A stretch of 62,799 nt of DNA, the filler included, from Hausera hauseri (taxonomy: Eukaryota), in assembly GCA_046269625.1 (NCBI GenBank). It is 11 parts of 11 records of this genome, joined end to end, with 100 filler letters (N's around TTAATTAATTAA, not from the genome) between each part and the next. Parts side by side here need not be neighbours in the genome. Positions count along the whole stretch, not along the records: positions 34,922 to 41,404 come from JBJURY010094876.1; positions 41,505 to 45,944 come from JBJURY010580890.1; 9 more parts are not named here. One strand, given 5' to 3'. Both the position numbers and the translations under genes were made by a program. The notes beneath the pieces are model-generated. The model saw only the letters and a program-made list of their open reading frames with translations. It did no database searches and was not told the origin of the DNA. Positions 11,001 to 60,872 of this stretch are shown here, piece after piece (the first letter of the stretch is position 1; every line of letters starts with the position of its first letter).

Positions 11001-11110
11001 GGTATTGCTTCATATTCTATAAATGATTTTTCTGATCCTGTGTCAACTAACGCATACATTTCCCAATCTTCTATGTGTATTTTAGTGAAGGGCCTCTCTT
11101 CTGCTACCTT
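8082..11110 (-). mobile_element. Ty3/Gypsy pol (PR-RT-RNaseH-INT), decayed, copy A
   Basis: YALVDTGS; RFCIDYRALN, LDLQSGYWQV, MPFGI, FAYLDNV (YLDD altered); FIIKTDASKEGIG; ADALSR; MSMNIVGPLP, ILTDRGRNFTS, TAYHPQCNGMVER. Many stops and frameshifts. Confidence 0.95.
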
Positions 11111-25700: not shown

Positions 25701-28700
25701 TTTCATGGTGTGGTCTTCCATGGTGTAATCTTTCATGGTGTGGTCTTTCGTGGCCTGATATTCAATAGTGTGGTCCTTCATGGCGTGGTCTTCCATGGTG
25801 TGGTCTTCTATGGTGTAGTCTTCAATGGTGTGGAATTTCATGTTGTGTTCTTTCATTATGTTGATTTTCATAGTGTGGTCTTCCATGGTGTAATCTTTCA
25901 TGGTGCAATTTTTCGTGGCCTGATATTCAATGGTGTGGTACTTCATGGTGTGGTCTTCCATGGTGTGGTCTTCTATGGTGTGTTCTTCCATGGTGTGGTC
26001 TCTCATCGTGTAATGTTTCATGGTGTATTCTTTCATATTGTGGTCTTCTATGGTGTCGTCTTACATGGTGTGGTCTTTCATAGGGCAATGTTTCATGGTG
26101 TGGTGTTACGCGTTGCAATCTTTCATGGTGTGGTCTTGCATGGTGTGGTCTTCCATGTTGTGTTCTTTAATGGTGTGGTTTTCCATGGTGAGGTGTTTTA
26201 TAGTGTGGTGTTTTATGGTGTAATCCTTCATTGTGCGGTCTTTCGTTCCATGGTCTTCAATGGTATGGTCCTTCATGGCGTGGTCTTCTATGGTGTGGTC
26301 TTCTATGGTGTAGTCTTCGCTGGTGTGGACTTTCATGTTGTGTTCTTTCATTATGTTGATTTTCATAGTGTGGTCTTCCATGGTGTAATCTTTCATGGTG
26401 TAATCTTTCGTGACCTGATATTCAATAGTGTGGTACTTCATGGGGCGGTCTTCAATGCTGTGGTCTTTCATTTTGTGTTCTTCCATGGTGTGGTCTCTCA
26501 TCGTGTAATGTTTCATGGTGTGGTCTTTCATCTTATGGTCTTCCATGGTGTGTTCTTCCATGGTGTGGTCTCTCATCGTGTAATGTTTCATGGTGTGGTC
26601 TTTCATCTTGTGGACTTTCATGTTGTGTTCTTTTATTATGTTGATTTTCATGGTGTGGTCTTCCATGCTGTAATCTTTCATGGTGCGGACTTCAACGGTG
26701 TAATATTCCATGGTGTGGTCTTTCGTGGCGTGGTCTTCCATGGTTCAATCTTCCATGGTGTGGTCCCTCATTGTGTAATCTTTCATGGTGTGGTCTTTCA
26801 TGTCGTGGATCTCCATAATGTAATCTCTCATGGTGTGGTGTTTCGTGGCCTGATATTCAATTGTGTGGTATTTCATGGTGTTGTCTTCCATGGTGTGGTC
26901 TTCCATGGTGTGGTCCTTCATGGTGTGGTCTTACATGGTGTGGTCTGTCATAGAACACTCTTTCATGGTGTGGTGTTACGCGGTGTTATCTTTCATGGTG
27001 TGGTCTTGCATGGTGTGGTATTCCATGGTGTGGACTTTGATGTTGTGTTTTTTCATTATGTTGATTTTTATGGTGTGGTCTTCCATAGTGTGGATTTTCA
27101 TGCTGTGGTCTTCCATGGTGTGGTCTTCCCTGTTGTGGTTGTCCATTGTGTAATTTTTCATGGTGAGGTGTTTCATAATGTGGTGTTCCATGGTGTAATC
27201 TTTCATGCTGCGGTCTTCCATGGAGTAATATTTTATGGTGTGGTCTTTCATAGCGTGGTCTTCTATGGTGTAATCTTTCATGGTTTGGTCTTTCGTTCCC
27301 TGGTATTCAATGATATGGTCCTTCATGGCGTGGTCTTCCATGGTGTGGTCTTCTTTGGTGTGATCTTCCATGGTGTGGACTATCATGTTGTGTTCTTTCA
27401 TTATGTTGATTTTTATAGTGTGGACTTCCATGGTCTAATCTTCCATGCTGTGGTTTTTCATGTTGTGGTTTTCCGCGGTGTAAACTTTCATGGTGTGTTC
27501 TGCCATGGTGTGGTCCTTTATGGTGTGGTGTTCCGTGGTGTAATCGTTCATGATGTGGTCTTCCATGGTGTGGTCTTTCACGGTGTGGTCTTCCATGGTG
27601 TGGTCTTATATGTTGTGGTCTTCCATGGTGTGGACTTTCATGTTGTGTTCTTTCATTATGTTGATTTTCATGGAGCGGTCTTCCATAATGTTGCCTTTAA
27701 AGGTATTGTCTTCCATGGTGTAATCTTCCATGCTGTGGTTTTTCATGTTGTGTTTTTCCGCGGTGTAAACTTTCATGGTGTGGTCTGCCATGGTGTGGTC
27801 CTTTATGGTGTGGTGTTCCGTGGTGTAATCATTTATGATGTGGTCTTTCATGGCGTGGTCTTTCATCGTGTGGTCTTCCATGGTGTGGTCTTCCATGGTG
27901 TGGTTTTCCACGGTGTGGTCTTCCACGGTGTGGTCTTCCAATGTGTGGTCTTCCATGGTTTGGTATTCCATGCTGTGGTCTTTCATTGTGTATTCTTTCA
28001 TGTTGTGGTCTTTCATGTTGTGGACTTTCCTGGTGTGTTCTTTCATTCTGTTGGTTTTCATGATCTTGTCCTCCATGGTGTGGTATTTCACGGTGTAATC
28101 TTTCATGGTGTGGTCTTCAATGGTGTGGTCTTCCATGGTGTGGTCTTCCATGGTGTGGTATTTCTAGGTGTGGTTTTTCACGGTGAGTGGTCTTCCATGG
28201 TGTTGTCTTCCATGGTGTGGTCTTCCATGGTTTGCTTTTTCAAGGTGTGGTCTTCCATGATGTGGTCTTCCGTGCTTTGGTATTCCATGGAGTGGTGTTT
28301 CATACTGTGGTCTTCGATGGTGTGGTTTCTCACTGAGTAAACTTTCATGGTGTGGTCTTTCATCGTGTAGTCTTCCACCGTGTGGTCTTCCATGGTTTGG
28401 TATTCCATGTTGTCGTCTTCCATGGTGTGGTCTTTCGTGTTGTGTTCTTCCATGGTGTAATCATTCATGGTGTGGTCTTTCATGGCGTGGTCTTTCGTGG
28501 TGTAAACTTTCATGGTGTGGTCTTCCATGGTGTGGTCTTTCATGCTGTGGTGCTTTTTGTTGCAATCGTCCAAGATGTGGTCTTGCAAGGTGCGGTCTTC
28601 CATGGTATTATCTTTCATGGTGTAGTCCTTTATGGTGTGGTCTTCCACTGTGTGCTCTACAATTGTGTGGTCTTCATGGTGTGGACATTCCTGTTGTGTG

Positions 28701-29427
28701 CTTTCATTATTTGGTTTTCATGATGTGGTCCTCTATGGTGTGGTATTTCGCGGTGTAATCTTTCATGGCGTGGTCTTCAATGGTGTGGTCTTCCATGGTG
28801 TGGTCTTCCATCGTGTGGTATTCCATGGTGTCGTCTTCCATGGTGTGGTCTTTCGTGTTGTATTCTTCCATGGTGTAAACATTCATGGTGTGGTCTTTCA
28901 TGGTGTGGTCTTTCGTGGTGTAAACTTTCATGGTGTGGTCTTCAATGCTGTGGTCTTCCATGTTGTGGTCTTCCTAGGTGTGGTTTTTCACGGTGTGTTT
29001 TTGTCCATGGTGTGGTCTTCCATGGTGTGTACTTCCACAATGTGATTTACCATTGTGTGGTCTTTCATGCCGTAATCTTTCATGATGTAGTCCTCCATGG
29101 TGCACTCTTATACGGTGCAATCATTCATGGTGTGGTCTTTTATAGTGTTGTCTTCAATGGTGTGGTCTTCCATGGCGTGGTCTTCCATGGTGTGGTCTTC
29201 CTAGGTGTGGTCTTTCACGGCGTGGTCTCCATGTTGTGGTCTTCCATGGTTTGGTTTTTCAAGGTGTGGTCTTCCATGGTGTCGTCTTCCATGGTTTGGT
29301 ATTCCATAGTGTGGTCTTCCACGGTGTGATCTTTCATGGTGTGGTCTTCAATGGTGTGGTCTTCCATGGTTTGCTTTTTCAAGGTGTGGTCTTCCATGAT
29401 GTGGTCTTCCGTGCTTTGGTATTCCAT
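16771..29427. repeat. 15-bp minisatellite array, consensus CATGGTGTGGTCTT(C/T), ~12.6 kb
   Basis: The whole contig is this unit with point variants. It translates as (HGVVF)n on plus and (MEDHT/MKDHT)n on minus. Confidence 0.98.
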
Positions 29428-29530
29428 NNNNNNNNNNNNNNNNNNNNNNNNNNNNNNNNNNNNNNNNNNNNTTAATTAATTAANNNNNNNNNNNNNNNNN
29501 NNNNNNNNNNNNNNNNNNNNNNNNNNNAAA

Positions 29531-30036
29531 TTGAGAATGTATGAGCTTAATTATATCGAGTTGGAGTCTTATAGGCAACAGTTTAATTGTGAGTTAAATA
29601 TTGTTGCTGGTGACACTGACAGTTTCTTCATTGAATGCCATGGTGTGGACTTACAATCCCAACTGCTACCAGCAATGATAACAAATGAACAGTTAGATAT
29701 ATCTAACTGTGACAAAAGTGATCCACTGTACTCTACTCGTTTCGCTTCTGTCATTGGCAAATTCAAAGACGAAAATCATATGCCCTCAAAACCCAATCCA
29801 AACTAGTGCTCAAGTGCAAAGGAATCAACCTCAAGCAAACAGACTTACTATTCAGTAACTACTTCCAGGCGTAAAAAACCGGTTGCGGCACTATGGTAGG
29901 TCAAGAGCGAATTGGCAGTAAGGACCACCAGCTCATGACCATCACCTCAAAAAAGAAAGCACAGGATCCCTTCGATGACAAACGACACTGGGTTGATAAA
30001 AACCATAGTGTCACATATGGACATTATTCTATTTGA
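29531..30036 (+). pseudogene. Polinton/Maverick-type PolB, C-terminal fragment (family 2)
   Basis: VAGDTDSFF, VIGKFKDE, KCKG, then KKKAQDPFDDKRHW...VTYGHY*, the typical end of this PolB group. Confidence 0.85.
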
Positions 30037-30532
30037 TTGCTTGTATATTAATAACTAGTTATTTCTTGTCATCTTTTTTCACAAATAAGGGGTGGGAATA
30101 GTGAAATCCAGTTGGCCCCACTGCTTCCTGATTGGTCCTCTACTCCCATTGGCAAATTTTTCCTTCACATGATGACGTGTTCGCCTTCCACTGGCTTCCT
30201 TCCTTCCCTGGAGGGGGTTTGGGGCCAAGTCCTCACATCCATCTACTTATGTGCATCGCATGTCGCAAATCTTATTGTTTTATTCGACATCTGCTCCCAG
30301 CAAATCGGATAAGTTTTCAACATTTTGAAATAATGCAAGATTAATGCAAGTAAATGTCGCACTGTATTGATTATTTAAATTTATTGATTTTATTGATCTA
30401 AGTTTTACTTGGTCTTAACCTATATAGCAATTACTTAGTTTTTCTTGGCCTTATCCTCTATCCCACATTACTTGATTAATAAGACAACACGATATTTCTA
30501 TACAACATTTATTAAACAATAAATAACAATAT

Positions 30533-33500
30533 TTACAATGCCACATGTCCATGAGGTAGTTTGTGGATTCCATCTTCAAGACTGTGCCTTTTGTTATCGA
30601 ACCAATCGAGGCTTTACTTCCACAGCGCAACCGTGGCAATCTGATGTTCCCGGGACTGGATCCTCTTTATTTCGCAGACGATGTGAGTTTGTTCCCACAA
30701 CACTCTCAAAATCTACAAAGCCTATGTCTTTAGTTAATGTGACCCTTTGAATTCACTTGGCTCGCTTCTTTACCTGACCACTTACATCGATGGCGTACAT
30801 TTTTGATCTCAACGCAACAAAACGGGTGATAATCTTCCCATTCACCTCTTCTTTAAACTTCCCGAGGACCTTCTTGTTGACGGTTGAGTAATTTTGATGA
30901 TCCTTCGGATAGTCCGAGATATTCACATACTGCGCCAATTTTGCAAACTTTTCAACGACATCATCTATATGGATCTGGTATATGAAACTGTCTGTGTCTA
31001 TGTACATTAACTGGAGCTCCATGAATGTGGGGACCATGATGTTGTAATGAAAGTCGTACATCAAGGTCTTGGATAGATCCAATATGGACATGCCTACATA
31101 TATAAGCTTGTTGAACTCAAGTGATGTCTTAAGCATATTGATGCTCACCAGGTTCTCCGTGTAGATTGTGCTGCTGTGGACGTTGGGCTTAGTGATGAGT
31201 TTCTTTGCCTTCTTCCAGTCACATACCAGCTCAATGTTTATCCGGTTTTGGATGTTCTCCATAATTTTGCCAAAGACCGAGTTGTTATACAGCTTGAATT
31301 GGGCCTTTCGAACTCGTTCCGGGTATTGGCCGTCAACTGGGTATTGAGGCCTATGTATGGACTCAGCCATTTGGACTGGCTAAACTGCAGGGCTCTATGA
31401 ATCCTTATGACTCGGAGTCCATTTTTGATGGCCAGTTGGAGATTTATGTAGTGGGCTACATACCCCTTCTTGTTTTTGAGGTTCCAGAGCCGTTTCTTAT
31501 GCTTATCATTCGGCGGCCTCTTGCTCTCCGGCAGAAAAAGCAGCGGCTCAGGCCTTGTGTGGATGCTATTTGGGTATTCCACATCCACCTCCAGTATGTA
31601 GCCAGTATCTCCATTTGGATCTATAACTTCAATATCCAAGACTTGCTGCTACTCCACCCATTGAAAGTTATCATAGGGCAATGGGTTGCTCATTGCCCAT
31701 CCATATAGATTGTTGGTATCCATGTATGATATATATGAGGATTCCTTGGATGGATCTTAATCTGCCATGTATTTGTTGTTGGACTCGCTGTACCTGTGAA
31801 TGGCCTGGCAGATTCCGCCCCTGATGCCTCTCGCAATCATGAGGACCATATTGTAATCCTTCAAGATCTGGAGCCTTATACCGGTATAGCGGAGCATAAC
31901 TGCCCAAGTCATTCCTGCAGCTGTAAAGAAATGGGCTAGATCTAACTTGTGGCTCTTAAGGGTCACATCCCGGAAGCTTTCCAAGACATCTGTAAGCAAC
32001 AGCACATCTGTGAGGAGAAAGATATCACTGTATTCCCCTATTGTCCTGCACTGGAAGGTCTGCCACACTCTTTGGGCGTGCTCATAGTCAGCATCACTAA
32101 TATGACTGTATGACAACTGACTATAGAAGTCCTCCTTGGCCGGTAATGCATCTTCATCCAGTGCTTTCCATGACGTTATATAGTCATAGGGGAACACTCC
32201 TTTCCGCCTCACCAGGTCAAATGTAATCGGGAGCAACCTCTTCGTCTCCTTGAGCTCATCACCTGGAAGGTTCTTCACGAGGCTGTCCAGTGAAGAGCTC
32301 ATGAAGCGGAAGCTATCAATGAAGCGAAGTCTGATGCGGCCCACATGCTTCATGAAGGTGATGTTGTTCTCACTATTTGGAATCACATCAATGTTCCCTC
32401 AATATTACCCAATTCTCTAACAATGAAGTGGGAATCGTATCCACTAGGATTGTGGAATACCACGGGAACATATGTACGTGTCTTGCAGCGTAAGTTGCAA
32501 CTGTTGCATGCTGCGCCTCGTTATATGCCTGTAAAATGGCAGAGAACCCTAACTTTGTTATTGTTCCATGTGAATGGCTTTCTGCATAAGTAGCATGTTG
32601 ATGCTTTGCGCCATTTACATTTTTCTTGCTGCGACATCACCACGTAGCTCTTATGCTGCTGCAACATGTCTTCAAGTTTGTGGGCATACTGTTCCAGGCG
32701 TCGCATAAAATGTGCTTCTGCATTTACACCCCTGTATAGGTAGGGTTCATTGTCAAGTCCTTTGGCATACATGCAGTATGATGATAACTCATGCTACTCG
32801 TATGCTGTAGTACTGCTTTGCTGTGGATTGGGGCTGCAGTTGTGAACTGGACTGAGGATGGCCTCAAAGTCACAATATATAACAATCGGCACCTTCTGCA
32901 TTTTCTCGAACTCCTTAAATTCCAGGTAATCCTCCTTGGGGAATTCTGCTCGGATGCAATAGTTTGTATTGTAGTAGGTCTTGCGCTCCTCCAGCTTTTC
33001 TGCGGCTGTGTCTCCATTAAAATGGGTAAAGCATCTTTTGCATATTTCCGTCCTTGATTTATGCTTGGATATTTGGGATCCTACGAGGCGCCCAAAATTC
33101 TTGATCATCTAGCAGGAGCAGATCCCTATGATCCTCCAATTTCTCCTTGCACACATGTAAGGGATAAAATTTGTCCTCCTCCAATCAGAAGATGTTGATG
33201 GAGATGTTGTTCAAGCTTTCAAATTTCATGACTTCATCTAGGCTCGGTGGGAATGAAATACAGCTGAAGTTGTATGTGTGCTACACTTTGTTATATATTC
33301 AAACTCGGAAAGCATTATGTTGATTCTGGACTAGTTTTGACAAAACAGAATATCTGAAGCACATGCTGTCCTCATTATGGACGTTGATGCATGCCTTTTC
33401 TTAACTATCCATTCAAAGAGTAGTATGTAGGAGCTGCCTCTCGTGGGACAATACTTGTACACATGCACAAGTAACCCCTTTATTGTTGCTAAAGTCCAAC

Positions 33501-34137
33501 CGCTCTTCTTGTCCTGGCTTTCTTCGGCTTCGCGGATGAGCCTTGAATAGTCCTCTGTAATGATATCCTTAATGTTAGAGAATTTTAATAGTGGCCTGTT
33601 CTTTGTCTTGAAGGCTCTACTAGACAGCTCTCCTTTGACATTGGTGAAGGTGGCTTCCAATTTAAAGTTCACCTTAAGGGCCTTCAGCTCCAACAAGTTG
33701 TCCTGGAGAATGCCTGCTGCCTCCTCCTTTAAATATTCCAGGAATTCATGGAGCGATGTCTGCCCCGCTGCTGCTATGAAGTATCGCCGCACTTTGCTCT
33801 TCAGTGCCGCTACATCAACTGGCCGCTGTCCTTGGCTTTTTGATGGAGCATCTGCTGCTATTTCTGATATGCGTTTTAGTCCTGCATCGGGCCTTGCTGC
33901 TAAAGCAGGCTGTACAACTGGTTGTGCTGACGAAGCAGGATGCTGCTCATTAAATATGACCTTCTTTGACTTTGATGTGAACTCAGTCAAATGATGTTTG
34001 TTATCTTCATAAAACTTCATGTATTCTCCATAACATACAGCCTCACATCCTGGGCAGATAAAATAGATGATCCTATTGAATTTGTGTCCATAATAGCTCC
34101 TCATAGTATTGACAGTTCTAAGGCTTGTATATTGCAT
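30533..34137 (-). pseudogene. Polinton/Maverick (adintovirus-like) protein-primed DNA polymerase B, near full length, decayed (family 1)
   Basis: SGW..., ICKRCFTHF, IYCDFEAIL (ExoI), CYLC..VR..CHFTG.RGAAC..CNL (endonuclease VII-like), FIDSFRFM, KGVFPYDY, RGIRGG, DINNLYGWAMS, KLYNNSVFGK, YIDTDS, LRSKMY, FDNKRH..PHGH. Many frameshifts. Confidence 0.93.
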
Positions 34138-34210
34138 AAGTGCAATACACGTATGAACTGCATCTTTGATTTTCCTTTAAAGTCGTTATTGATATATTTG
34201 CACTGAATAT

Positions 34211-34417
34211 TTATTTTTTCGACTTGATAAAGAAAATCAAGTGATGTTTATGGACATTGTAAAAGTCGTCATAATTGATTTGGCACACTACCTTACATGT
34301 ATGGCATATATAATACAGAACCATGTTGTATAAATGGTCAAAGTACTTCTTCATAATACTGTGACAATTTTCAGGATCGTGGATTTGAACCAAACATTCG
34401 CTGTAAAGTTTGCACAT
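34211..34417 (-). CDS. Cys/His-rich module, first of two tandem copies at the PolB N-terminus
   Basis: YICHTCKVVC..YDDFY..HKHHL..FIKSKK recurs at the start of the next ORF as FICPGCEAVC..YMKFY..NKHHL..FTSKSKK. Confidence 0.55.
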   Translation of the reverse strand: MCKLYSECLVQIHDPENCHSIMKKYFDHLYNMVLYYICHTCKVVCQINYDDFYNVHKHHLIFFIKSKK

Positions 34418-34921
34418 CTAAAAATCAACCCAATTATTTTGAGGAGCACAAATAAAAAACTCACAATTCGTTGAAGTGATTTTTGAAATAATGAAATATA
34501 TTGCCATATCACCATGTAATGCCTCGCTTATTGATTGGTTTTAATGCGCTTTTTGTTTTAATGCATCAATTAAATATATGGCGCCGCCAACTTCAAACAG
34601 GTTTACCTATATGGGAAATTGAATGACGTCATTAGATTCTTCGAATAATGCATGCTTGACCGAATATTCGAGTTCGAATAGCTAAGCATTCGACTTGTAA
34701 GCTCGAATTCGAACATCTGATGCCATATTCCAGTTCAGCATACATGACTTCCTATCCCGCCGCGCTTATAGAATTATTAATTTTCGCTTCACTGGGCTTT
34801 AAATGCACATTTGCTTAATTTNNNNNNNNNNNNNNNNNNNNNNNNNNNNNNNNNNNNNNNNNNNNTTAATTAATTAANNNNNNNNNNNNNNNNNNNNNNN
34901 NNNNNNNNNNNNNNNNNNNNN

Positions 34922-37820
34922 ATTACACTGAGAGTGATACGCGGTAGTTGTTAATCGTTTCTATTTCAAATATCCTGGTAATCTTCTCGAAGAGTTCACT
35001 GGTAAAATTTCTTCCGCGATCCGTTAATATTTGGTCTGGTGGTCCATGTCGACAAATAATTTTTCTTACTACGGCTTCTGCCAAGGTTTCTGCCTTTTGG
35101 TCAATTAACGCTGTCAACTCGACAAAATGAGTTAGTCGGTCAATACAAGTTAAGATGTACTTATTGTTCTTGTGAGTCGTAGGAAGAGGTCCTACTACAT
35201 CCATTGACATGGCTTGCATAGGGATATCCGACACATTGATTGGTTTTAATTCGGCCATGTAGTTTTCCATCCTCTTTTGTTTAGTTCACATACTTCACAA
35301 GCTTTTACCCAATTCTTTACATCAATATAGATAATGGGCCAAAAGTATTTATTCAATATTCTTTCTAATGTCTTCTCCCAGGATATGTGTCCTGCTAAAT
35401 ATGAATTATGTTCCGACATTAGCACTTCGGTTTGTAAACCTTTTGGAATAACTATCAGTTTCCTTCCTTTCCGTTTGTAATATAAAATATCCTTATTGCT
35501 CTTGTCATTTAAGACGCAGTATTTATGTCCATGTCTGTGTAAGTATTTCTTTAATTGTCGTCCCTTTGGTATGATATCCTTTTTAGAAAATTCTATAATT
35601 TGCTGAATAACTTTATCCTTTCTTTGTTCTGTGGAGATTTTAATTGCTTTATCCATCGTTAAGACGCGTTGGCGGTCTATTATTTCCTAAAGTTGACTTT
35701 TCTTCATTACCATGATTGCGCTCGTTTTGGTCTTTAATCTTGATAGTGCATCGGTATCTACATGTTTATTTCCTGGCTTATACTGGAATTCGATATTGTA
35801 TCTAGAGGTTTCTTCGGTCCATCTGTTAAGTCTGATGTCGGGTTATTTGCTCGGCCTTTTAAAGTCGTGACGGCTTTGTGATCAGTGACAATTATAATTT
35901 TCTGCCCGCATACGTAAACGTTGAAGTGTCTAAGTGCTTCTTTTACGGCTAGAATTTCTAATGCGGTAACAGAATAATTTTTCTCGGCACTCTTCAAGGA
36001 ACGTTCTCCATAAGCAATTGGGTATTCTAATTTTTCACCTTTTTTTCTCTGGGCTAATTCATATCCAATGCCTTCTTTACTGGCGTCTGTCATGATTATA
36101 AAGGGTAAGTTAAAGTCTGGGTACCGTAAAACAGATTAGCTTGTTAATATCTTCTTCATCTCGTCGAAGGCTTTTTGTTCGACGTCGGTCCATTTCTATT
36201 TAATTCCTTTTTTAAGTAGACGATATAAAAGTGCATTAATTTTCGAATTATCTGGCACACAGGTGGCGTAATATCCGCACAGTCCTAGCCAGTGCCTTAA
36301 TTCTTTCTGGTTTTATGGTTCCATGCAATCTGATATTTTGTTTAATAACGATTTATCTGGTTTCCATCCTCCTTCTCTAACTATATGGCCAAGGTAGGAT
36401 ACTGCATTCTGAGACAATTTACATTTTTTCGGATTTAATTTCAATCCGGCTTGTTCCAAACGCATCACCGTGTGTTCAATATAATTTAAGTGTTCCTCTT
36501 CTATCCTTGACACTATCATTACGTCATTCAAATATGCAAAAGCATGATCTAATTTCACTAGCATTCTATTCATCATCCTTGTAAAGATGGCTGGTCCGGT
36601 AGTAATACCGAATGGCATGACATTAAATTCATAGACGCCATCATGTGTCTTGAACCGCGTTTTATATCGATCTTTGTCCTCGATTTCTACTTGCCAATAT
36701 CCGGATTGTAAATCCAGGGTGGTAAACCATTTTGCTCCTGATAATCTGTCTAAAGCCTGTTTTACTGATGGTAATAGGAAAGAATCTTTCATCATAAGAT
36801 TATTCAATGCCCTGTAATCAATGCAGAATCGATGTTTCGTAGTACATTTCTTTCTAACAATAAGGATGGGTGAATACCAAGATCTATAACTGGGCTTAAT
36901 TATATCGGCCTTAAGCATCCGTTCGACTTCTTTTGTTACCTCAGGTCTCAGAGAGTGAGGTGGAGGATACCATTTCGTCATCTTCTGATCCTCAAGATCT
37001 ATTTCTTCGTTTGAACCAGGCTTTTTCTTAAGCGGAATAGTCAATTTTAATGCTTTTGCTCTACCAATATCTTCGTCGTCTTTAGCAATGACTGATTAAT
37101 AGCAGCACAGGAATTCATAAAATCGACATGAGGTGGAAATTCGGCATACTTGTAAGGCTTTTCTTCAATAGTTATCGACGACACTATATACGTATCTCCT
37201 AGAGTAGTGTAAGCATGAAGCTTTACGGGGTTCTGTACGTTGTTTGCTATACTGATTGGTATACGACCGGAGTGTACTCTTGTCAGTACGTTACATATTT
37301 GGATTTAATGTTTCCTTTCGTTCAAAATATACCGACTGATCGTCATCTTGCTGAATTTGTGCGTAAATTATTATGTCCGTTCTCGGTGGAATATTTTCGT
37401 CTACTGTTATCCACACTTCTCCAAATTTCCTATCCTTAGCGTTCTTTACTCCTTTATTTGGTCTGATTTTTATTAACTTTCCTGTTTGTAAGTCAATTGC
37501 TATATTTTGTAGTCTTTTTAGTAGATCACATCCGAAAACTATGTCGTCAGTTAATTGTTCCATAACTGCAAATTCGTGACGGAAAAACTGTCCAACTATT
37601 TGAACTTCTGGGTTCCATTTAAACATCGGTTTCGACATTTGGCCAAAAGCTCCTGTACTTCCTGGGTCTTTTATAGATGGTGGGTATAATTGTCCCCTCA
37701 GCGTTTGAGGAATTGAATCATTTTTGATGTAAGACATCTCAGAACCTGTATCGATTAATGCATAAACTTCCCAATCTACAATAATGATTTTGGCGAAAGG
37801 TCTTCCTTCTATTACTGTTC
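34922..37820 (-). mobile_element. Ty3/Gypsy pol (PR-RT-RNaseH-INT), decayed, copy B, same family as 8082-11110
   Basis: YALIDTGS; RFCIDYRALN, LDLQSGYWQV, FAYLNDV; TDASKEGIG, TDHK; H...GH...CEVC; MSMDVVGPLP, ILTDRGRNFTS. Collinear with copy A. Confidence 0.95.
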
Positions 37821-38237
37821 CAAAACAGTTTGATGCAACTTTTTGGCGATTAGTCGCCGATATTTAATGTCCGTTGATTCGGATTTCTGGGCAGGATACT
37901 ATATTTTCCGACAGTTGTTTTAATTCTCCTTTTGGATATAATTCATTGTTTTCTATGTTCAATTCTTCCGTTTCATGTGTACTAATTAATGGTTCTCGAT
38001 CGTTAGTATGTGGTTCTATATTCTGGTAGGTTTTTAACATTGGAATTTCTCAGACAGTTGATCTAGTTTCTATATTCCGAGGTTCTCTCGGGGAATACAA
38101 TATTCTGGGGTCGTCGAGGGGCTGTCGATACACATGTTCCTTAGGACTCCGTAACGTTTCGTTCCTGCATAAGGGTCTTCTAAACTAATTGTCATTTTCT
38201 AGATTTCTGTCTTATATGAACTCATTGATTGTTTGTC

Positions 38238-40311
38238 ACAGTCCTCATAGTCTGGAGCGGTAGGGAGTAGCATATGCAATGGTGATTTAATGACCGAATA
38301 CGTCTTATGTCTGTTTGTTCCTAAAAGTATTTCTCCTCTCTTAGGCTCGTCATCATCTGAATTATTTCTTCGCGTATTAGGTTTTCTAAATTTCTGCTGT
38401 GTAAGAACATAGGCCTTCCTTTCCGTTTACGATTATAATAACCGACATGACGTTCTACATCTTATTTCCATCTATTTTCTTCGTATGTCTTTAAGACCTT
38501 TCCAAAGGGCTTTATGATTGCAGTCAGTATTTTGCATGAAAATCCGCTCAATGTAAATATTTTATACCCATTTATTAATGCTTGGATGACTTCCTTAATC
38601 ATTTGTATCAAAAAATATATTGCTAAGAATCCGCATGCGGCTTGGCCAAAGATCAAAAATCTTCCACAAATTTTGTATAGTATTTCTGTGGTTACTCGCT
38701 GATAATGGTTTATGCCAAGTAATGATTCCCATTTAGCTTGGTATCGCGTGTCATCCACTACAGAGGCCATGGCTCGACTTAATTCATGTGTTTGTTGTCG
38801 CTGAAAAGCGAGAAATTGTCGGAAAGCTTCAATTTCTTTAGGTCTGTACATATCCTTCGATGAGGTGTCTTGAAACTTGTCGTCTATAATTTCTTTTGCG
38901 AGATTTGTTCCCGTTAATTTATTTGGAGAAGCAGTAATACCTCCATTTGGCAGACTAATCCAATCTGTTTCGTTACGTCTAAACATCGGTTCTCCTAAGC
39001 TTGCTTTGCGATCTTTAAGGATTGTTGGTTCAGTTGCATTGTCTAATAGTACTCTAGTGAGTGGCATGGATAACCTTGGAATATTCTGGTAAATAACGGG
39101 AAGTTCACGCATGCAACGTTTTTCTTCAACGGTGAGTGGGACATCTCTTTTCTCACATTCGTAAGTCAATAGTACTTCACCGGTAACTCGACCAAAAATT
39201 CATTCTCTCATAGGAATTATAAGGGATGCCAACTCAGGGTTAGCGTAAATAAGAGGCAGTTTTATCCTCATGATTTCCATATCCAATTTACAATCTTCTG
39301 TTATCATTTTATGATATAACTTGGTTATTCCGACTTGCCCTTTGTAATAGAAATAATCATTACTGTTTTACAGATAATCCTAAATTCGGATATCCTGCGT
39401 TTCTAGTTTATAAGTCTTTGCATTTATTTCTGTTTCTGCGACAAAAATGCCTCATAGTTAATAACGAACATCATTACTTCACAACGAGAAATCATTTCTT
39501 TCTTAATACATTTTAGTCCATGCTGATCAGAGATTAATATAATGGGCGTAGGATGTTCTGATACGACTTCGCGTGTCCTTGAGTTGGTATCGGATTTATC
39601 CAGGTATCGCTTTCCGGTAGTTTCATTAAACTTTAATTCCTTAATTTTGATAAAATTACAGTTTCTTCCAGAGGGAGGTTACCATATTATAACGGAACTT
39701 CTAAAAGCATAGGTTCCGTCTTGTAAATGACACTTTTGATTCTCGGTATATAGTTTAGTGACACTATGGAACATTACTTTCTGTGCTCGCATCTCTGATT
39801 CATAGAAATCCACGACCACTACATTTGCTTGTAATCCTTTTCCGGTGTCGTATTCCGCTCCGTTACAATGTCCTTTATGTATATCTAACCTTCCGACCAC
39901 TACATTGTATGCCCTAATTATCTTTCCTGGTTGCATTTCTAATTCAATACTGTCCCATTGTAATCTTCCTGTCTTCTTAGCATGTTTGCAGTGCTGGCGT
40001 TCTAAGTTCATCGGAATTGGAGGAATTGTTGGTTTGATTACTGAAGAATGTCCGTGTATTAATCCACAGTGAAAAGTGCTTCGAGACCGTCTCAGCATAC
40101 ATTCTATTCCATCTAATGATATCAATTCTTGTTGTTGGTACAGAAAATAATTTTTCTCTCTCGTTTCTAACTTGTGCGGCCTGGCATCTTAGCACACTTC
40201 CAAATCCATTAGGGAATATCTCTGCCCTAGTTTAAACTTATCGCAGTCGTAGACGGCAACAGCGCCTATGTGCCTTATTAGCATCATAAAGGTGAGTAAT
40301 CTGATTAGCCA
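38238..40311 (-). pseudogene. Chuvirus-like (class III) envelope glycoprotein, complete but decayed, copy B
   Basis: Signal-like WLIRLLTFMMLIRHIGA then VAVYDC; C....RSTFHCGLIHGHSS; CKHAKKTG; GHCNGAEY...NVVV; GRVTGEVLLTYEC; CMRELPV; MYRPKEIEAFRQFLAF; TM FLIFGQAACGFLAIYFLIQMIK. Cys and motif order is that of chuviral G. Confidence 0.85.
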
Positions 40312-41037
40312 ATTTGATTCGTTTTTCCGGTTATTATTATCAGTTGTTAGCAAATTATGTAGCATATCTTCCGGCCCATTGGTATTCCTGGGTCGTTTGT
40401 CTTCTTCTTTGTCAAATAGTCTCGATCAATTTACTTCGCAGGGTAGCTTTCTCGCCGCTCTTCGTGATAAGCTTGTAGCTCTATTAATTTCATTCTCTCG
40501 ATTAGGGTTTACCTTGATAGCTAAGTATAGTAATAATTTTCTTAATTCTTCAATGGTGTTTTCTACCATGATCTTTTCGATTACCGATTCGTCGGTTAAG
40601 TTACTTTTCGATAGTTTAAAACGTCAACTTTTCATCATTCTAGCTGCACTGAACATTGCTTTTTCTTTGTCATCTAATGTGTTATTTCGAAAGCTTGAAT
40701 AATTTACAATACGTATTAAATTCTTATTAATTCGTTTAATTCGTCACTGTAAGTGCTGAAAGTAGGAATCGACAATTGTCTGAACTCTCTAATCAATTCT
40801 CTATTATGATCAATTGCCGCTCATGTCTTCTTAAGACTACCGACTGGGCGTTTCTGTCTTGGGACATTGGCTATCATTTCACTCAGCGGCACTAAATTCT
40901 TGTCGTATTGTTCCTTGTCCTCATCCGTTTGTAAATACTCGAAATACATTGCAGCACCTCGGACTCACATGATTTGTCCTACGCATTGTTCCGTCTTGGC
41001 CTTACGCATGGCTTCTTCTTTTGTCTGTTCATTGGCT

Positions 41038-41260
41038 ATTATTACTACTATTTAATTTGTTTCGTCGGGGATAATCCCTACATCTACTAATTGTTCTAAA
41101 TCGTTGAGTATTCTACCTCTAAAGTAAAATTTATAATTTAGCTCATTTGTTCCGCTATTATTTAATAACCATTCTCTTACGTCCCTTACATAGGAATATG
41201 TAGTTAACTCACATTTTTTTCGCACATCCACTCGGATGATACCATTACTTTCATCGTTAT
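41038..41260 (-). pseudogene. Ubiquitin-like domain without diGly, upstream of the glycoprotein
   Basis: Manual translation with one frameshift at the T-run ~41214-41220: ITMKVMV...ELTTYSYVRDVREWLLNNSG...YKFYFRGRILNDLEQLVDVGIIPD..*IVVII. Compare ubiquitin [20 protein letters not shown]. Confidence 0.55.
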
Positions 41261-41941
41261 TTCAGGTTTAGTCCTTAAGATTTTAGAGTATTTCCTTATC
41301 AAAAGTTTCGGCACCGTGCTATAAATTGTATTCTCACTAGATAATTTAGTTAAGGTCGGAATAAGTTGTCTTAACTTACTTTCAGTAATATTTACGTTAA
41401 TTAGNNNNNNNNNNNNNNNNNNNNNNNNNNNNNNNNNNNNNNNNNNNNTTAATTAATTAANNNNNNNNNNNNNNNNNNNNNNNNNNNNNNNNNNNNNNNN
41501 NNNNACAAAGAATAAGAAAAAAACCAAGAGTTTTTGGTAGAGAGAAAAAAAAAAAAGGGTGAATCTTTGTAAAGATATTAAAGGGTTTGTTTCTCTAGAA
41601 TTTTTGTAGATACCTATAACGGTGTCTGACAGAGAAATAATATACTTATAGAGGTTCTTGAAAAGGCTGAGAAAGAAACCTTTATAGAGTTTTTGGAGGA
41701 GCTACTGGTTCTAGGAGAAATCCTAGAGAAGACCTTATCGGCGCATAAGGCAGGTAGATTCTTACAGTTTTGGTTTTTCTAAAACGGGTAACCAGACCTG
41801 TAAGGATAACCTAAAGCCCTTTATAGGAAATAAAGGCCCGTCTTAAAGTAATAGGAGGCAGAGCGATCACAAAGCTGATGTTGTGAATTCTGTGAAGACG
41901 TTTGCAGTCTAAAGCGGATATCCCACCCAATTTCAGAAGAA

Positions 41942-42629
41942 ATGGGTCAAAGTAGCTCCCAGGTCGGATCTCCCCCACAGGGCGAATTGTTTGACTTCAT
42001 GATAACAAAATATGGTAAAAAAAAGTGTGTATGGAGTGAATGAATGGATAAAAAATGGCATTTTTCCTGCAGGCGGCACATGGAAGCTAAATGTTTTGAA
42101 AAGAATAGAAATAGAATTAAAAATCAGAGACATTAAACTGAGAGAGGCAAAACACATACAAACAAAAAGTCTGCTGCAGCTTGAAAAACAGAAAGAATGT
42201 TTGGAATGCTGGATGAAAGAGAGTGACAGCAGAGAGCGAAAGAAACATGCTAAAGAAATGGCTGGGAGTAAAGATAAATCTGGTGTTATTACTGGGCGAC
42301 AGGACAATGCTTCTATCTCTTCAACGCAATCTGAAAATGTTTCTGCTTTTAAGACTGTAATTACAACAGAAAGAATTAAACCACCACCTTATAATTGTCC
42401 TAAAAATTCTTCTTCTGTTCCTGAACATATGTACCCGGACTTGAGCGCGCTGTCCATCTTGGATTCTGACCTTGACGCCTACCCAAATCCACGGCCCCGA
42501 CAAGCGAGAACTCCTTCTCCAACTCGGGACGCAACGTCTGAGCAACCTCTGAAGGAAAAAAAACTGACCTTTCCCCAATACCACCCACACAGACAACTGA
42601 AGCCTCTCAAGCATCAACATCAGCATTAA
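41942..42629 (+). pseudogene. Endogenous retrovirus gag N-terminus (gamma/epsilon-like matrix and late domains)
   Basis: MGQSSSQ myristoylation motif at 41942; frameshift at the A-run ~42017-42024; W..NGIFPAGGTW matrix-like motif; PPPY and YPDL late domains. Confidence 0.7.
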
Positions 42630-42684
42630 CAGCAACACCAACAACTTATATCAAAGAGAAGACTTTTGCCAGCTCCTTCAGAAA

Positions 42685-43971
42685 ATGACGGTGTTGGAGT
42701 TAAGAATGCATTATCTTGAGGAGATGAATGCTTTAAAGGACTCAACATGCGTGCATATCGGGGAGGAGGCTGAGAGGAAAGGTCGGCTTGACGAGGAGAG
42801 GGAATCTGTGTCTGACAGCAAAATGGTATGGAACTCTCTTGGTGCTAAACCAAAAAATCTTTCGGGGAGAATCCAGCTTCTGGACAACAACGAATGGCCA
42901 GAGTTGCAAAGAAATGCTTTTTCTCCGCCAGCGAGGAGAAACACACAACGGCAGGCTGGAATCAAAATAATTGATAAGGCAGACGGAGCAGTAATTCTTC
43001 AAAACAGATTCACGCCACTGGAAGAAATTGGTGAGTCAGCACAAAGTTCTTCTTCTTCTGATATCGGAGAGGGACCTGAGAGGGTCAGCTCAAGACGAAG
43101 ACAAGTCCAGAGAGAGACTTTCAAGAATCAAGAAATGCTGATTATCACAGATAAAATGGTGAATGAGCTCAGATGCTTTTGGAACAAGAAAAAAGTGAAA
43201 GTTCTGAGTTTTGCTGATAAAGTGTCTGATCTCACAGAGAAGATCCTGGAAATCACAGCTGATTATCCAGATCTGAAGACGCTCATCATTCATGCAGGAA
43301 ATGATGAAATTATGGACAGACAGTCAGAAATTCTGAAGAAGAATTTTACTGAGTTGCTGAATGCAATTCAGAATCTCAACATGAATGTGTTTATCAGTGG
43401 TCCAGTTCCGGCAGCCCGAGGAGGGGCTGAAAGATTCAGCAGAATCTTCAGTTTCCATAACTTTTTGGAAAAGTTATGTGCTGACCACTCTGTGAAATTT
43501 GTGGACAACTTTGATCTATTCTGGGAGAGACGACATCTGTTCAAGTCTGATGGACTGACTTTGAATCGATCTGGAGCTGAGTTGTTGTCGTCAAATATCA
43601 AATACTTCGTGAATCAAGTTCCGGCTGGACACAAACAACAGGAGAGTGACCAGGTGAAGGCTGATCCTGAAGGACAACAGGAGCAGACGCAGACAGCAAG
43701 GGAACACACTGTACAAGCTACTGATAAGGCTGCTGCAGAACCAGAGAGGGAGTCACGTCAACCCGTTGAACCGGAAGAGCTGGATTCATCGACGTCACCC
43801 ACAGAGGAACCTGAGAAGGAGTTCCCCCAACCTACAACCAAGAAAAAAGTGTTTCGTGTCGGAGACCACCTTGATGACCCTGTGGAACGAGCAGAGTGTC
43901 GTTTGGACTTTCGCACACGGCTACAGAACCATTATGAGAAGAATAAAAATGGATTCACCTATCCAGGTTGA
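42685..43971 (+). CDS. SGNH/GDSL esterase-like protein of the L2/CR1 LINE ORF1 type, catalytic residues lost
   Basis: LQNRFTPL; LIITDKMV (GDS replaced by TDK); IIHAGNDEI; VFISGPVP..ERFSR; FVDNFDLFW..LFKSDGLTLN (DGLH replaced by DGLT). Confidence 0.85.
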   Translation: MTVLELRMHYLEEMNALKDSTCVHIGEEAERKGRLDEERESVSDSKMVWNSLGAKPKNLSGRIQLLDNNEWPELQRNAFSPPARRNTQRQAGIKIIDKADGAVILQNRFTPLEEIGESAQSSSSSDIGEGPERVSSRRRQVQRETFKNQEMLIITDKMVNELRCFWNKKKVKVLSFADKVSDLTEKILEITADYPDLKTLIIHAGNDEIMDRQSEILKKNFTELLNAIQNLNMNVFISGPVPAARGGAERFSRIFSFHNFLEKLCADHSVKFVDNFDLFWERRHLFKSDGLTLNRSGAELLSSNIKYFVNQVPAGHKQQESDQVKADPEGQQEQTQTAREHTVQATDKAAAEPERESRQPVEPEELDSSTSPTEEPEKEFPQPTTKKKVFRVGDHLDDPVERAECRLDFRTRLQNHYEKNKNGFTYPG

Positions 43972-44580: not shown

Positions 44581-46237
44581 TGATAAAAATACTAGGACTT
44601 TAATAAAAACAACAATTTTGTTTTTCCTAGGAATGGTCGATTATTATCAATTAACATCGATGTTTAGAGCTCGATAAACGGCTATCGATGTCATTATCGA
44701 CGTTTTATAATAACAAATTCATGTTTTTGAAACGTGGGTGATCCCTACTTTGTTTCTGTTATAAATTAAAATTCTGAACGCAACCATATTAATAACACTT
44801 GACCACCTATATTTTATCTGTGTTGTATTTAATGTAGATAAATATATTATATTAATTTGTATTGTAAACGAGTTTCAAATTAAAACCGAAGAATTTCATA
44901 TACTCCCAGTGAAAACATATAGTGACTATATATATATTACATTGGAGTGAAAATATTTGAATAAAACTGGAAAAATCGTGCTGAATAAGCCTATTTTCCG
45001 TTCCACAGGGGGGTCAATTTTTTAGCTAAACAAATAAAACACAAGTGTGATGTTTTCAGCTAAACAAGAAATACATGTGTGAAAGTGTATAGTTCCACGA
45101 ACAAGACACATTTGATAGTATATTGTTAAAGAGGAAATGTGCACGTGAAAATTTACAATTGAACTCATAGTACACTCAGTTACACAAATAATACACATAC
45201 CAAAGTTTAGAGCTAGTAAATAATACACGTGTGAATTTGTATAGCCAAAGAAGAGTTACGCATGTGGAACGTTACGATTACCAATGAAACCAAAATACAT
45301 AAAATAATAAAGAAAGAGTTTTTAACTTAGATTCAGATAGCTTAGGGATAATTAGTATCACGGCCATAAATACTACGCTGATAAAAACCTCACAGCACAT
45401 CCACGCTCTGGTATCTGGAAGCAAAAGCCGATAGGAAGATTGCCATTAGTTAATCGTCAGATCATCATCCACCGCACTTCGCACATGTTCTGAAGTGCAC
45501 CAATCTAATCTTTAATATATCCGCTAAGACGCAACCCGTGACAGTTGTACCTTTGTAATGGCTAATTCTTCGTCTTCTGTCACCCAAACAGTGATGTCTA
45601 TCAACAAATAATAACAATTCAATCTTTCTCAATCGTCTTAAATCTTAACATTTCTAACTCAATATAACAATTAACAATGCTTAATATAGCACGTTATTGT
45701 TATAGCACTAGCTTTGCTCTCTGCCTTGGTCTAGTCCTTAATGGCGACAAAGAATCAGTGCTATTATCCCGCTCCGGGAAGCGAGTCCTAAGCAATAACC
45801 CCTTGGTGGTGGGACTTAGGATCTATAATTTAAGGTTTCCTTCAAATCGATGTGAACCTTCATCTTCACAGTTAGGGAATAAGGGGCGGAAACTCTCAAA
45901 GTATGTCAGTCAAGGCAACACTGCCTTCTCGTAGTCATCCTGTTNNNNNNNNNNNNNNNNNNNNNNNNNNNNNNNNNNNNNNNNNNNNTTAATTAATTAA
46001 NNNNNNNNNNNNNNNNNNNNNNNNNNNNNNNNNNNNNNNNNNNNTAGTTTCGGAACGGGTACAGACGAACTGAAATCAAAAAAATGAAAAGTTACAGAAA
46101 ATTAAACCGTAGTCTAAAAGTACAGCACAATAGGCTCTGTGCACATGCGTCCTGAATCTTCCGCTTTGACCGGATGTCGGCATTCCAGTTTCCGGTTTAA
46201 TTCCTGTATCCTGTCATCCCAGAGATAAACAACAAAA

Positions 46238-46870
46238 ATGAGTGTTGCTGCGTCAAATAAACAAAAATATAACGTGCGTGGCAGCTTTAGATTTCAGCCG
46301 ACGGTGTTTGGGTCTAAGGAACACTGTTGTGTGCCGCTTTGCTCGTCTTCAGGTCGCTATAATAGCTGTTTGAGCTTTCACCGTTTCCCTAAGGAGACAA
46401 GCCTTCATTTGTGCTGGCTGCAAAAAATCAGAAGAGAGGGATTTACGGTAACTCCTCACACCAAGGTATGTAGCCGACATTTCCTGGAGAATGAAGTAAT
46501 TACTACAGAAAAGGGAAGACGAATTTTAGCAGCTGGGTCGGTTCCATCATTATTTGAGTGGAACAAATACAGCAGGAAGACACGAGCAGGTGTTTGGGAG
46601 CGCCGTTGTCGACCATCTAATCCAGAACCTGATTCGGCGGATCCAATTGAGGACAATGAACCACCCGTCATGGTACCTATGGTCGTGGACCATGACTACG
46701 GCGCTAGCAGAACCGTGTGTGTTGACCGGGAGCAATATCACAGCATGCTGAGAGAAATTGAGCAACTGAAAGAGCAGCTCCGATCCTGTAGTCTTCAAAA
46801 GCCGTTTGGACTGGAACGTTTTTCTACGTCACCAGAAGACATCAGATTTTACACCAGGTCAGAGTTGTAA
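46238..46870 (+). mobile_element. THAP-domain first exon of a PIF/Harbinger (ISL2EU-like) transposase
   Basis: CCVPLC, FHRFPK, W, VCSRHF, SVPSLF (C2CH THAP); DHDY motif; coiled coil; FGLERF..DIRFYT followed by a GT donor. Confidence 0.8.
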
Positions 46871-48125: not shown

Positions 48126-48706
48126 TAAGTGATTAATTTAAGCAATTTTTTGTTTAAAGTTAATTTATATATTCTTTTAAATAAGGGGCTGATATAAGAA
48201 TTTTTTTCTTCTTTCTGCACTCTTTTCATTCAGTGTTTTGGATATATGATGTCATAGGATTGTAAGATGCAAATAAATAAATAAATAAAAACGCAAAAAA
48301 AAACGTAATTTAATATTTACAACAAAAAAAAGGACCAACAAAACATTGGGAGTGTATATTATGCTGGACTACCATTCATCATACTGCAGATAAATCACAG
48401 GAAAACCAAAACTATTAGTTATTATTATTAAGCTGCAAAAGTGAAAGAAACTGTAGCACGTCAAAAACGAAACTTAAAAACAGTGGAGCAGTCAACCACC
48501 CCGCACCTGCAACAGTGCATGCAACACCGCCCCCTATGGTCACAATATACTGTAGCGGTTACGGGGCGTGGACTGTGTTATGTCTTCCCCATAATGCTTA
48601 GCGGTATGTTAGTGTTCCGGCTGCACCATGAGTGAGATGGAGGTCTGTGATATAGACCTGCCTCAAGACACTTTGCAAGGAAGGTCACAAATGAAAGCTG
48701 TTATGC

Positions 48707-49180
48707 GTGTTCTCCGATTCCTCATGCTACCCCTCAAAACACCCTTATGCATCCCGTACTTTTATCCCTGATCCTAGTTCAAACATGACAGCCATCCACA
48801 CAAAGATTTCAGCTTTGGTTGATAGACAACGAAAGGAGAACTTAGGTTCCTGGAACGACTGCAACCTGGGCTGGCTCTTCGGGAGCGGATGGAAGGCTTG
48901 GTTTATGAAGATAGGTGACTTCTTGTTACTTGTTGTGGTAATACTGATGGTGATCTCGTGTTGTATTGTGCCATTAGTGAAATCTTTAGTCTCCCACATG
49001 TTTTCCACCACACTCATGTCTCTCAACTTGCCAAAAGAGGAGAGCGACACAATTATGATGATTTTGAGGATGAAGACAAATTTGATGATATTAATGTGTG
49101 TACTAATGATGAATAAAGCATTTTTGTTGTTGTTGTTTTGTTTTGTTTTTGGTCTAACGTTTATGATGCATCTGTTGTAA
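48707..49180 (+). pseudogene. Retroviral env TM-subunit C-terminal fragment
   Basis: TFIPD..SNMTAI.., WLFGSGWKAW, TM LLLVVVILMVISCCIVP; directly upstream of a PPT and LTR. Confidence 0.75.
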
Positions 49181-58604: not shown

Positions 58605-60872
58605 CTTTCGGATAGTCTGAAGTATCCAAATACTGCGCCAAATTTGCAAACTTTTTAAAGACATCATTTGTGTGAATCTGGTATATGAAACTGTCCGTGC
58701 CATGTACATTAGCTGGAGCTCCTTGAATGTGGGGACCATAATGTTGTAATGAAAGTCACACATCAAGATCTTGGATAGATCCAATATAAACATGCCCACA
58801 TATATAGGCTTGTTGAACTCAAGTGATGACTTGAGATTATGGATGCTCACCAAGTTCTCCGTGTAGATTGTGCTCCTGTGAAAGTTGGGATTATCGATGA
58901 GTTTTATTGCCCTCTTCCAGTCACATAGCAGCTCGATGTTTATCCGGTTCCGGATGTTCTCCATAGTTTTGCCAAAGACCGAGTTGTTATACCGTTTGAA
59001 TTGGTCCTTTTCAAACTCGTTTTAGGCATTGGCCCTCAACTGGGTATTAAGGTGTATGTATAAATTCAGCCATTTGAATTAGATGAACTGTAAGATCCGA
59101 TGAACCCTAATGACTCTGAGTACATTTTGGATGGCCTGTTGGAGATTTATATACAGGTTACATACCTCTGCCTGTTTTTGAGGTAACAGAGCAGTTTCTT
59201 ATGCATATCATTTGGCGGCCTCTTGCTTCGGGGAGAAAAGGCAGCTGCTTATGCCTCGTGTGGATGCTATGTGCGTATTCCACGTCCACCTCTAGTATGT
59301 AGCCTGTATCTCCATTAGGACTCATACCTTCAATATCCAGGACTTACAGCTGCTCAACCCATTGAAAGTTATCATAGGTCAGTGGGTTGTTCACTGCCCA
59401 TCCGTACAAGTTGTTGACATTTAGGTATGATATATATGAGGATTCATTTGATGGATCATAATCTTCCATGTTTTTGTTGTTGGCCTCACTGTACTGTGAA
59501 TGGCCTGGCAGATTCCACCCCTATGCCTCTCTCAATCATGAGCACCATATTGTAATTCTCCAAGATCTGGAGTCTTATGCTGGTATAGCGCAGCATAGCT
59601 GCCCAAGTCATTCCTGCATATGTAAAGAAATGGGCTTGATCTAACTTGTGTGTCTTAAGAGTCACATCTCGGAAGCTTTCAAAGACATCAGTAAGCAACA
59701 GCACATATGCGAGGAGATAGATATCACTGTATTCCCCTATTGCCTTTCACTGGAAGGTCTGCCATATCCTTTGGGCGTGTTCATAGTCAGAATCGCTAAT
59801 ATGACTGTATGACAAATCACTATAGACGTCCTCCTTGGCCGGTGCTTTCCATGACGTTATATAGTCATAGGGAAACACTCCTTTCCGTTTCACCAGGTCA
59901 AATGTATTCGGGAAGAACCTCTTTGTCTCCTTGAGCACATCAGCTGGAAGGTTCTTCATGAGACTGTCCAGTAACGAGCTAATGAAGCGGAAGCTATCAA
60001 TGAAGAAAAGTCTGATGAGGATCACATGCTTCGTGAAGGTGATGTACTTCTCCTCTCTATTTGGAATCACATCAATGTTCCCCTCAATATTACCCAATTC
60101 TCGAACAATGAAGTGGGAATCGTAACCACTAAGTTTGTGGAATACCACGGGAACATATGTACATGTCTTGCAGCGTAATTTGAAATTGTTGCACGCTGCG
60201 CCTCGGTGTATGCCTGTAAAGTGGCAGTGATCCCTGACTTTGTGACTGTCCCATGTAAATGGCTTTCTGCATAAGTAGCAGGTTGATGATTTGCGCCATT
60301 CACATTTTTTTTGCTGCGACATCATCATGTAGCCCCTATGCTACTGCAACATGTCTTTAAGTTTGTGGGCATACTGTTTCAAACGCTGCATAAAATGTGC
60401 TGCTGCATTTACACCTCTGTATAGGTAGGGCTCTTTGTCCAGTCTTTTGGCATACATGCAGTATGATAATAACTCATGGTACTGGTATGCTGTAGTACTG
60501 CTTTGCTGTGGATTGGGGCTGCAGCTGTAAACTGGACTGAGGATGGCCTCAAAGTCACAATATATGACAATCGGCACCTTCTGCATCTTCTCGAACTCCT
60601 TGAATTCCAGATCATCATCCTTGGGGAATTCTTCTCGGATGCAATAGTTTGTATTGCAGTAGGTCTTGTGCTCCTCCTGCTTTTCTGCGGCTGTCTCCCC
60701 ATTAAAATTTGTAAAGCATCTCTTGCATATTTCCAGCCTTGATTTATGCTTCGATATTTGGGATCCTACAAGGCGCTCGAAATTCTTAATCCAGATGAAA
60801 TGCCTCGTTTCTCCATCATATAGCAGGAGCAGATCCCTACGATCCTCCAATTCCTCCTTGCACACATGTAAG
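58605..60872 (-). pseudogene. Polinton/Maverick-type PolB, decayed (family 1, as 30533-34137)
   Basis: HFIWIKNF, IYCDFEAIL, VRDHCHFTG, KGVFPYDY, NNLYGWA, NSVFGKTMENIRNR, KPIYVG. Confidence 0.93.

Follow-up and report, generated by a model that had tools for sequence, protein, structure and literature searches.

The window is a 62,799-nucleotide stretch of the Hausera hauseri assembly GCA_046269625.1, in which 11 parts are joined by filler. Positions 34922–41404 make up one entire contig, bounded on both sides by N spacers. Its minus strand, on which all features described below for this contig lie, carries an upstream coding region, a hydrophobic segment, a glycoprotein (G; PF24664), a protease (PR), a reverse transcriptase (RT), an RNase H (RH), and an integrase (IN), in that order (Pfam). 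The Pol order PR-RT-RH-IN downstream of G on the same strand is that of Ty3/gypsy elements. The aspartic protease is at 37507–37806 (PF00077, E 3.9e-6), the reverse transcriptase at 36379–36855 (PF00078, E 1.6e-34), and the RNase H at 35845–36117 (PF17917, E 2.1e-26). The integrase zinc finger and core (34922–35449; PF17921, E 2.3e-18, and PF00665, E 1.4e-13) are cut by the contig end. There is no long repeat within the contig, and the positions of the LTRs and primer binding site (PBS) fall outside both of its ends. Rfam gave no match. Both element ends are missing, and BIR, ankyrin, Smc, and MATH domains had no match in the contig ORFs scanned with Pfam.

The G ectodomain (38660–40260) is of the chuvirus/HSV-gB type. 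PF24664, the Monjiviricetes fusion glycoprotein family, is covered 5' of PR from model position 6 to 599 in three pieces (6–227, E 1.6e-14; 323–361, E 0.061; 372–599, E 1.8e-24), the first of which begins at the hydrophobic segment. The ectodomain is interrupted by stops at 40191 and 39681, a frameshift near 39450, and additional stops. A predicted transmembrane (TM) helix follows at 38603–38659 (19-residue hydropathy peak of 1.84), and then a tail and linker to the protease (37807–38602), which is broken here. None of 1389 candidates matched in a word-index search of the C-terminal half of G against proteins of 430–2000 aa.

A second copy and copy number

A related copy (copy 1; 8082–12604, minus strand) extends from the C-terminal half of G through the integrase (PF24664, E 9e-9; tblastn). 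The aligned portion (8201–12603) has 69.2% nucleotide identity to 34922–41404 over 4469 columns. Differences between the copies at codon positions 1, 2, and 3 number 34, 19, and 123 in RT, 49, 36, and 134 in G, and 46, 41, and 102 in PR. The differences are mostly at third positions, and therefore both copies evolved apart while still coding and decayed only afterwards. In copy 1, a single frame that spans 319 codons and has two stops joins the G TM region to PR. Three stops were compared between the G TM helix and PR (two in copy 1, one in copy 2), and none is common to both; the stop that closes the G frame of copy 2 (34922–41404) is no stop in copy 1. Because both window copies are broken, the single G-to-PR frame is assigned to their ancestor. 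The claim of the sequence-only reading that a diverged second copy with the same G-then-Pol order marks a family and not a misassembly is borne out by this in-frame junction.

Contigs from sequencing runs were placed on the stretch. In run X1, 27,289 contigs match at 80% or better and cover 30 of 30 bins, including the upstream part; X1 may be the source sample and is thus not independent evidence. Run X2 has 1,677 contigs on the stretch. The family is high-copy, upstream region included.

Relatives in public databases

A phmmer search against 1.84 billion representative proteins returned 57 matches with 21–37% identity. These relatives are automatic gene calls and were judged from their protein sequences alone. 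In 17 of the 57, the protein is free of stops and more than 100 residues precede G, which follows a hydrophobic segment. In 31, G is near the N-terminus, and most of these are either short gene calls or G proteins of chuvirus length; nine are without the motif. P0019 has a zinc knuckle, G, PR, RT, RH, and IN all in one frame. Gag markers precede G in P0003, P0012, and P0037, and G shares its frame with RT in P0007, P0008, P0011, and P0063. Some internal matches have unrelated upstream sequence, such as P0031, with MRP-L47 ahead of G. The composite order across relatives, in a single frame, is Gag, helical bundle and ubiquitin-like domain (UBL), Bcl-2-like segment, internal signal peptide, G, and Pol. 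The earlier suggestion that G sits inside a polyprotein of gag-env-pol order agrees with these intact single-frame relatives and with published elements (PMC6431247, PMC13524379).

P0063 is 4844 aa long, contains ankyrin, and is in the size range of the giant Burro elements. It also has C2H2 motifs and, by eye, more hydrophobic segments after the integrase. Two to seven tandem protease-like domains follow G in P0063, P0008, P0009, P0012, P0015, and P0037.

The RT is 39–45% identical to six database polyproteins, and the same polyproteins are the best relatives of both G and RT. Together with the in-frame G-Pol junction of the two 69%-identical copies, this argues against a chimera, either of an endogenized chuvirus-like G beside an unrelated gypsy pol or by misassembly. 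The G family is named after negative-strand RNA viruses (PF24664), and no read or contig spanning the whole stretch was found among the run contigs, both of which would fit a chimera. We nevertheless regard this explanation as extremely improbable, and the sequence comparisons largely refute it.

Putative internal signal peptide

The signal-peptide-like segment at 40261–40311 coincides with PF24664 position 6 and has the highest Kyte-Doolittle peak (2.33 at 40308) of the 420-codon frame 40683–39424. This frame runs from 40683 into G in phase, with two stops before G (40626 and 40428), and coding-like sequence continues beyond two frameshifts (near 40700 and 41215) to the contig end. The in-frame, lesioned coding sequence that had been noted ahead of the hydrophobic segment is therefore real. 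A signal peptidase cut is predicted after the Ala at 40261, and small residues occupy -1 and -3 at the same place in the relatives (-1 is A/G/S in 11 of 17, vs 16% background; -3 is T/A/S/G/V in 17 of 17). We infer that 40311–40261 acts as an internal signal sequence that would be cut by signal peptidase. The start of the PF24664 match at this segment favors the proposed start of G at an internal signal peptide; copy 1, however, is uninformative on the G start because it ends inside G.

Alternatively, the element could be the same but rely largely on a separate start codon or a spliced env transcript for G, the in-frame fusion being incidental. A Met at 40365 is in frame, 38 codons before the conserved Tyr of G, and insect errantiviruses make env from a separate ORF (PMC6431247). 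In the 17 relatives, however, the nearest Met 5' of the cut is 26 to 237 residues away, with no fixed distance, and the upstream domains are in frame with G even across relatives that are just 21–37% alike. A Gag/Env/Pol stoichiometry of 1:1:1 would be unusual, and this was counted in favor of a separate start. Overall, translation of G mainly from its own start or a spliced message appears improbable.

Region upstream of the glycoprotein

Four segments were distinguished upstream of the hydrophobic segment: the C-terminal half of a putative helical bundle, cut by the contig end (41264–41404); a UBL of predicted beta-grasp fold (41040–41265), whose first strands were assigned by eye; a broken coding-like stretch of about 110 codons (40715–41039), recognized by few stops in one frame; and a segment in frame with G (40312–40683), at the Bcl-2-like position of the relatives and Burro. 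Two lesions break the UBL, the frameshift near 41215 and a stop close to its end. A UBL profile built from relatives only ranked 41192–41043 first of 2030 window pieces (E 0.0018), with the next unrelated piece at E 2.1; an initial, less stringent profile reached no better than E 0.089. A profile of the segment common to five relatives, two window pieces included, matched the ubiquilin-2 UBL over its full length (E 6.8e-5). The predicted fold of this segment in P0012 (pLDDT 80.5) is a helical bundle plus beta-grasp that matched ubiquitin and SUMO in a structure search (Z up to 9.6, rmsd about 2). The window UBL piece alone had no ubiquitin match in Pfam or PDB, and in the Atlas the UBL part of P0024 gave leads at 0.82 or below only. 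We conclude from these profiles and predicted folds that a ubiquitin-like domain is present upstream of G at about 41265–41040. A mononegavirus nucleoprotein had been considered for the region upstream of G and was dropped once the UBL and the relatives were found.

The helical-bundle profile, also from relatives only, ranked 41377–41264 first of 2030 window pieces, but with E 1; pairwise z was 4.5 against two of four relatives and about 2 against the other two. Among its structure matches, five of the 50 listed are TND-family (Z 6.7–7.0), amid HEAT repeats of equal or higher Z, and identity with a TFIIS N-terminal domain (TND/IBD) had no support by sequence. No Pfam or PDB match was found for 40715–41039, and none of 25 candidates matched the upstream read-through piece in a word-index search.

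Four relatives have a Bcl-2-like segment directly before the signal peptide. Each match is weak (Pfam E 0.001–0.2 in three of four; Bcl-xL E 0.007), and a BH2-like motif occurs in all four, 52–82 residues before the Tyr of mature G. The predicted fold of the P0003 spacer (pLDDT 45) is of too low quality to allow firm matches; its best Foldseek rows include many from the Bcl-2 family, none better than E 1.2, and the Atlas gave no usable match for the Bcl-2-like part of P0003. In the window, 40312–40683 aligns loosely with P0009 (phmmer, tblastn), ranked 11th with the Bcl-2-segment profile (E 12; pairwise z at most 1.9), and is without the BH2-like GGW motif. Because the segment is nonsignificant alone and is without this motif, Bcl-2 identity is unsupported in this copy.

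What occupies the slot between Gag and env varies among relatives: a UBL, a Bcl-2-like segment, the two together, a segment that by eye resembles an exonuclease, or nothing at all. In P0024, a basic run and Gly-Gly come after the UBL (residues about 1025–1105) and resemble a ubiquitin tail that can be cleaved off; the window UBL does not have this feature. Residues about 115–290 of P0011 resemble a DEDD-type exonuclease by eye and abut the signal peptide and G; they have no Pfam match.

A capsid or zinc knuckle had not been seen in 40312–41404, and none was found here: the CX2CX4HX4C motif is absent from all six frames and Gag profiles gave nothing significant (best E 0.45), although the region does have a recognizable UBL and helical bundle. 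In P0003, P0007, and P0012, which have both the helical-UBL unit and a knuckle, the last zinc knuckle is 196–262 residues before the UBL, whereas here about 43 codons precede the UBL before the contig breaks off inside the helical bundle. Gag is therefore expected past 41404, with the capsid gene most likely a short way beyond the point where the contig stops. The distance from knuckle to UBL can be much longer, since P0024 has the helical-UBL unit with no Gag detected and no Pfam match in about 950 upstream residues. The absence of knuckle and Gag-profile matches from the contig, and of Gag before G within the called proteins P0008, P0011, and P0063, would also suit an element of env and pol only, with its capsid borrowed in trans or lost. 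The contig end inside the helical bundle and the knuckle spacing in the three relatives speak against such an element, which we consider very improbable. Of the two options proposed earlier, a Gag further upstream fits this spacing and an absent Gag is unsupported.

Comparison with known elements

The planarian element Burro has Gag, a Ubi/SUMO-like domain, a BCL2-like domain, an in-frame env related to mononegavirus fusion glycoproteins, and Pol, and is high-copy (PMC6431247). The giant gypsy elements Burro and GYPSM1 go back to Jurka 2007 and Grohme 2018, as described in PMC6431247; in the available text of PMC8532177 and PMC13238120, Burro is mentioned in passing. In Schmidtea, levels of BURRO1 transcripts go up upon smedwi-2 RNAi (PMC8532177). 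The element in the window resembles Burro in its Ubi/SUMO-like domain, its segment at the Bcl-2 position, its in-frame and mononegavirus-related env, PR-RT-RH-IN, and high copy number. It differs in being compact in the part seen, with about 230 codons from the G TM helix to a single protease, in its undetectable Bcl-2 motif, and in the unmatched ankyrin, BIR, Smc, and MATH domains in the contig. This comparison was made with published descriptions of Burro, and Gag, LTRs, and element size lie outside the contig here. A conserved segment at the dUTPase position of Burro, between PR and RT, is common to copy 1 and four relatives and had no dUTPase match in Pfam or PDB. Polyubiquitin matches from the dUTPase search were rejected as a summed-repeat artifact in which no single domain scored better than E 85; the ubiquilin match, by contrast, comes from a single domain.

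GAG-ENV-POL errantiviruses with an HSV/gB-type env are known from Nematoda, Bryozoa, and Platyhelminthes (PMC13524379; Sacco 2022, as cited there). They share with our element the gene order (gag being extrapolated here), the env type, and a Ty3/gypsy Pol. By eye, the N-terminal half of G is far closer to six Schmidtea "Platyhelminthes_C1a" rows than to nematode rows on the same supplement page (PMC13524379). The present copy differs in being broken and would fail the intactness filter of that study. Among the first 30 of the 55 flatworm rows, the only species with ENV-POL env counts above 1 are the five free-living ones (PMC13524379). Neither Bcl nor ubiquitin occurs in the text or seven supplements of PMC13524379, nor polyprotein in its main text.

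Mosquito BEL/Pao elements with a chuvirus-like G (Dezordi 2020, as cited in PMC13524379) have the same glycoprotein family (PF24664-like) on a Pol of another superfamily, and G between Gag and Pol is not reported for them in that account. Cargo ORFs have been described in rotifer elements (PMC5408684, in the part available).

The layout, whose novelty the sequence-only reading had implied, is already published (PMC6431247, PMC13524379), and the element is a compact, broken addition to the Burro/GAG-ENV-POL kind. Its value is modest. It carries the Burro-type architecture of UBL, in-frame env, and Pol over to one more genome, in a family that is compact and high-copy, and it connects two accounts (PMC6431247, PMC13524379) that approach this kind of element from different angles.

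Proposed organization and processing

As judged from sequence, three things are established: the order of domains between helical bundle and IN, homology with relatives encoded in a single frame, and coding constraint. We propose that 34922–41404 is very probably a decayed copy of a Ty3/gypsy LTR element that belongs to the Burro/GAG-ENV-POL kind, has a high copy number, and ancestrally encoded one polyprotein. Counting against this are the undetectable Bcl-2-like domain, the Met at 40365 as a possible G start, and the near-N-terminal G in 31 of 57 matches. The polyprotein of the active ancestor would have comprised Gag, helical bundle, UBL, a domain at the Bcl-2 position, signal peptide, G, TM helix, PR, RT, RH, and IN, the presence of Gag, LTRs, and PBS being extrapolated beyond the contig. 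As is usual in ER targeting, the internal signal sequence would send G into the ER and signal peptidase would cut behind it. The G TM helix would then stop transfer, leaving Pol cytosolic again, and the element's own protease would release Gag and Pol. Output of Gag, Env, and Pol would be 1:1:1 unless adjusted by splicing or decay, and the upstream product would stay membrane-anchored via the spent signal peptide.

This arrangement may be likened to the core-E1 junction of HCV, an internal signal peptide of an RNA-virus polyprotein (PMC5402940, in the part available), where the signal peptide that ends a cytosolic protein leads the glycoprotein into the ER and then stays as an anchor. The two differ in having no homology, and the analogy is one of mechanism only. 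No test of the processing of a one-frame Gag-Env-Pol polyprotein was found in the open-access literature, covered mostly at the level of listings. The conserved predicted signal-peptidase site offers a direct prediction for such processing.

A further, speculative reading, which taken as a whole we think rather unlikely, gives the env signal peptide a second role: once cleaved, it would anchor the upstream Gag-UBL-(Bcl-2-like) product by its tail. In this reading, the compact, high-copy family, whose host may be fish-associated and not a planarian, would have kept the helical-UBL unit and the anchor and lost the Bcl-2 motifs, and the helical bundle might resemble a TFIIS-N/integrase-binding-domain module. 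If so, the capsid precursor would be tethered to the same ER membrane as G, and a membrane-anchored Bcl-2 mimic would be presented.

Other features of the window

The integrase end of another gypsy-like element was identified by eye at 1–1230 (plus strand). A further gypsy-like element at 5897–8029 (plus strand) has a pre-Gag-like stretch that by eye ends in a ubiquitin-like Leu-Lys-Gly-Gly tail, with no ubiquitin match in Pfam or PDB. Broken frames at 29528–34821 and 58605–61000 resemble, by eye, protein-primed DNA polymerase B of the Polinton/adintovirus type. On the plus strand are also an SGNH esterase-like frame (42601–43971; PF13472, E 0.0013), a THAP domain (46229–46870; E 2.4e-15), and an env-like TM fragment (48695–49180; PF07204, E 0.0003). 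The repeats here look fish-like, and the assembly may therefore mix two organisms. A 12.6-kb array of short T-rich repeats (16771–29427) has long FHGVV-type frames on the plus strand and His-rich frames on the minus strand. At 13014–16280 (minus strand) there is a stop-free RPAP1 frame of 1088 codons (PF08620, PF25766) that is 40% identical to a database protein.
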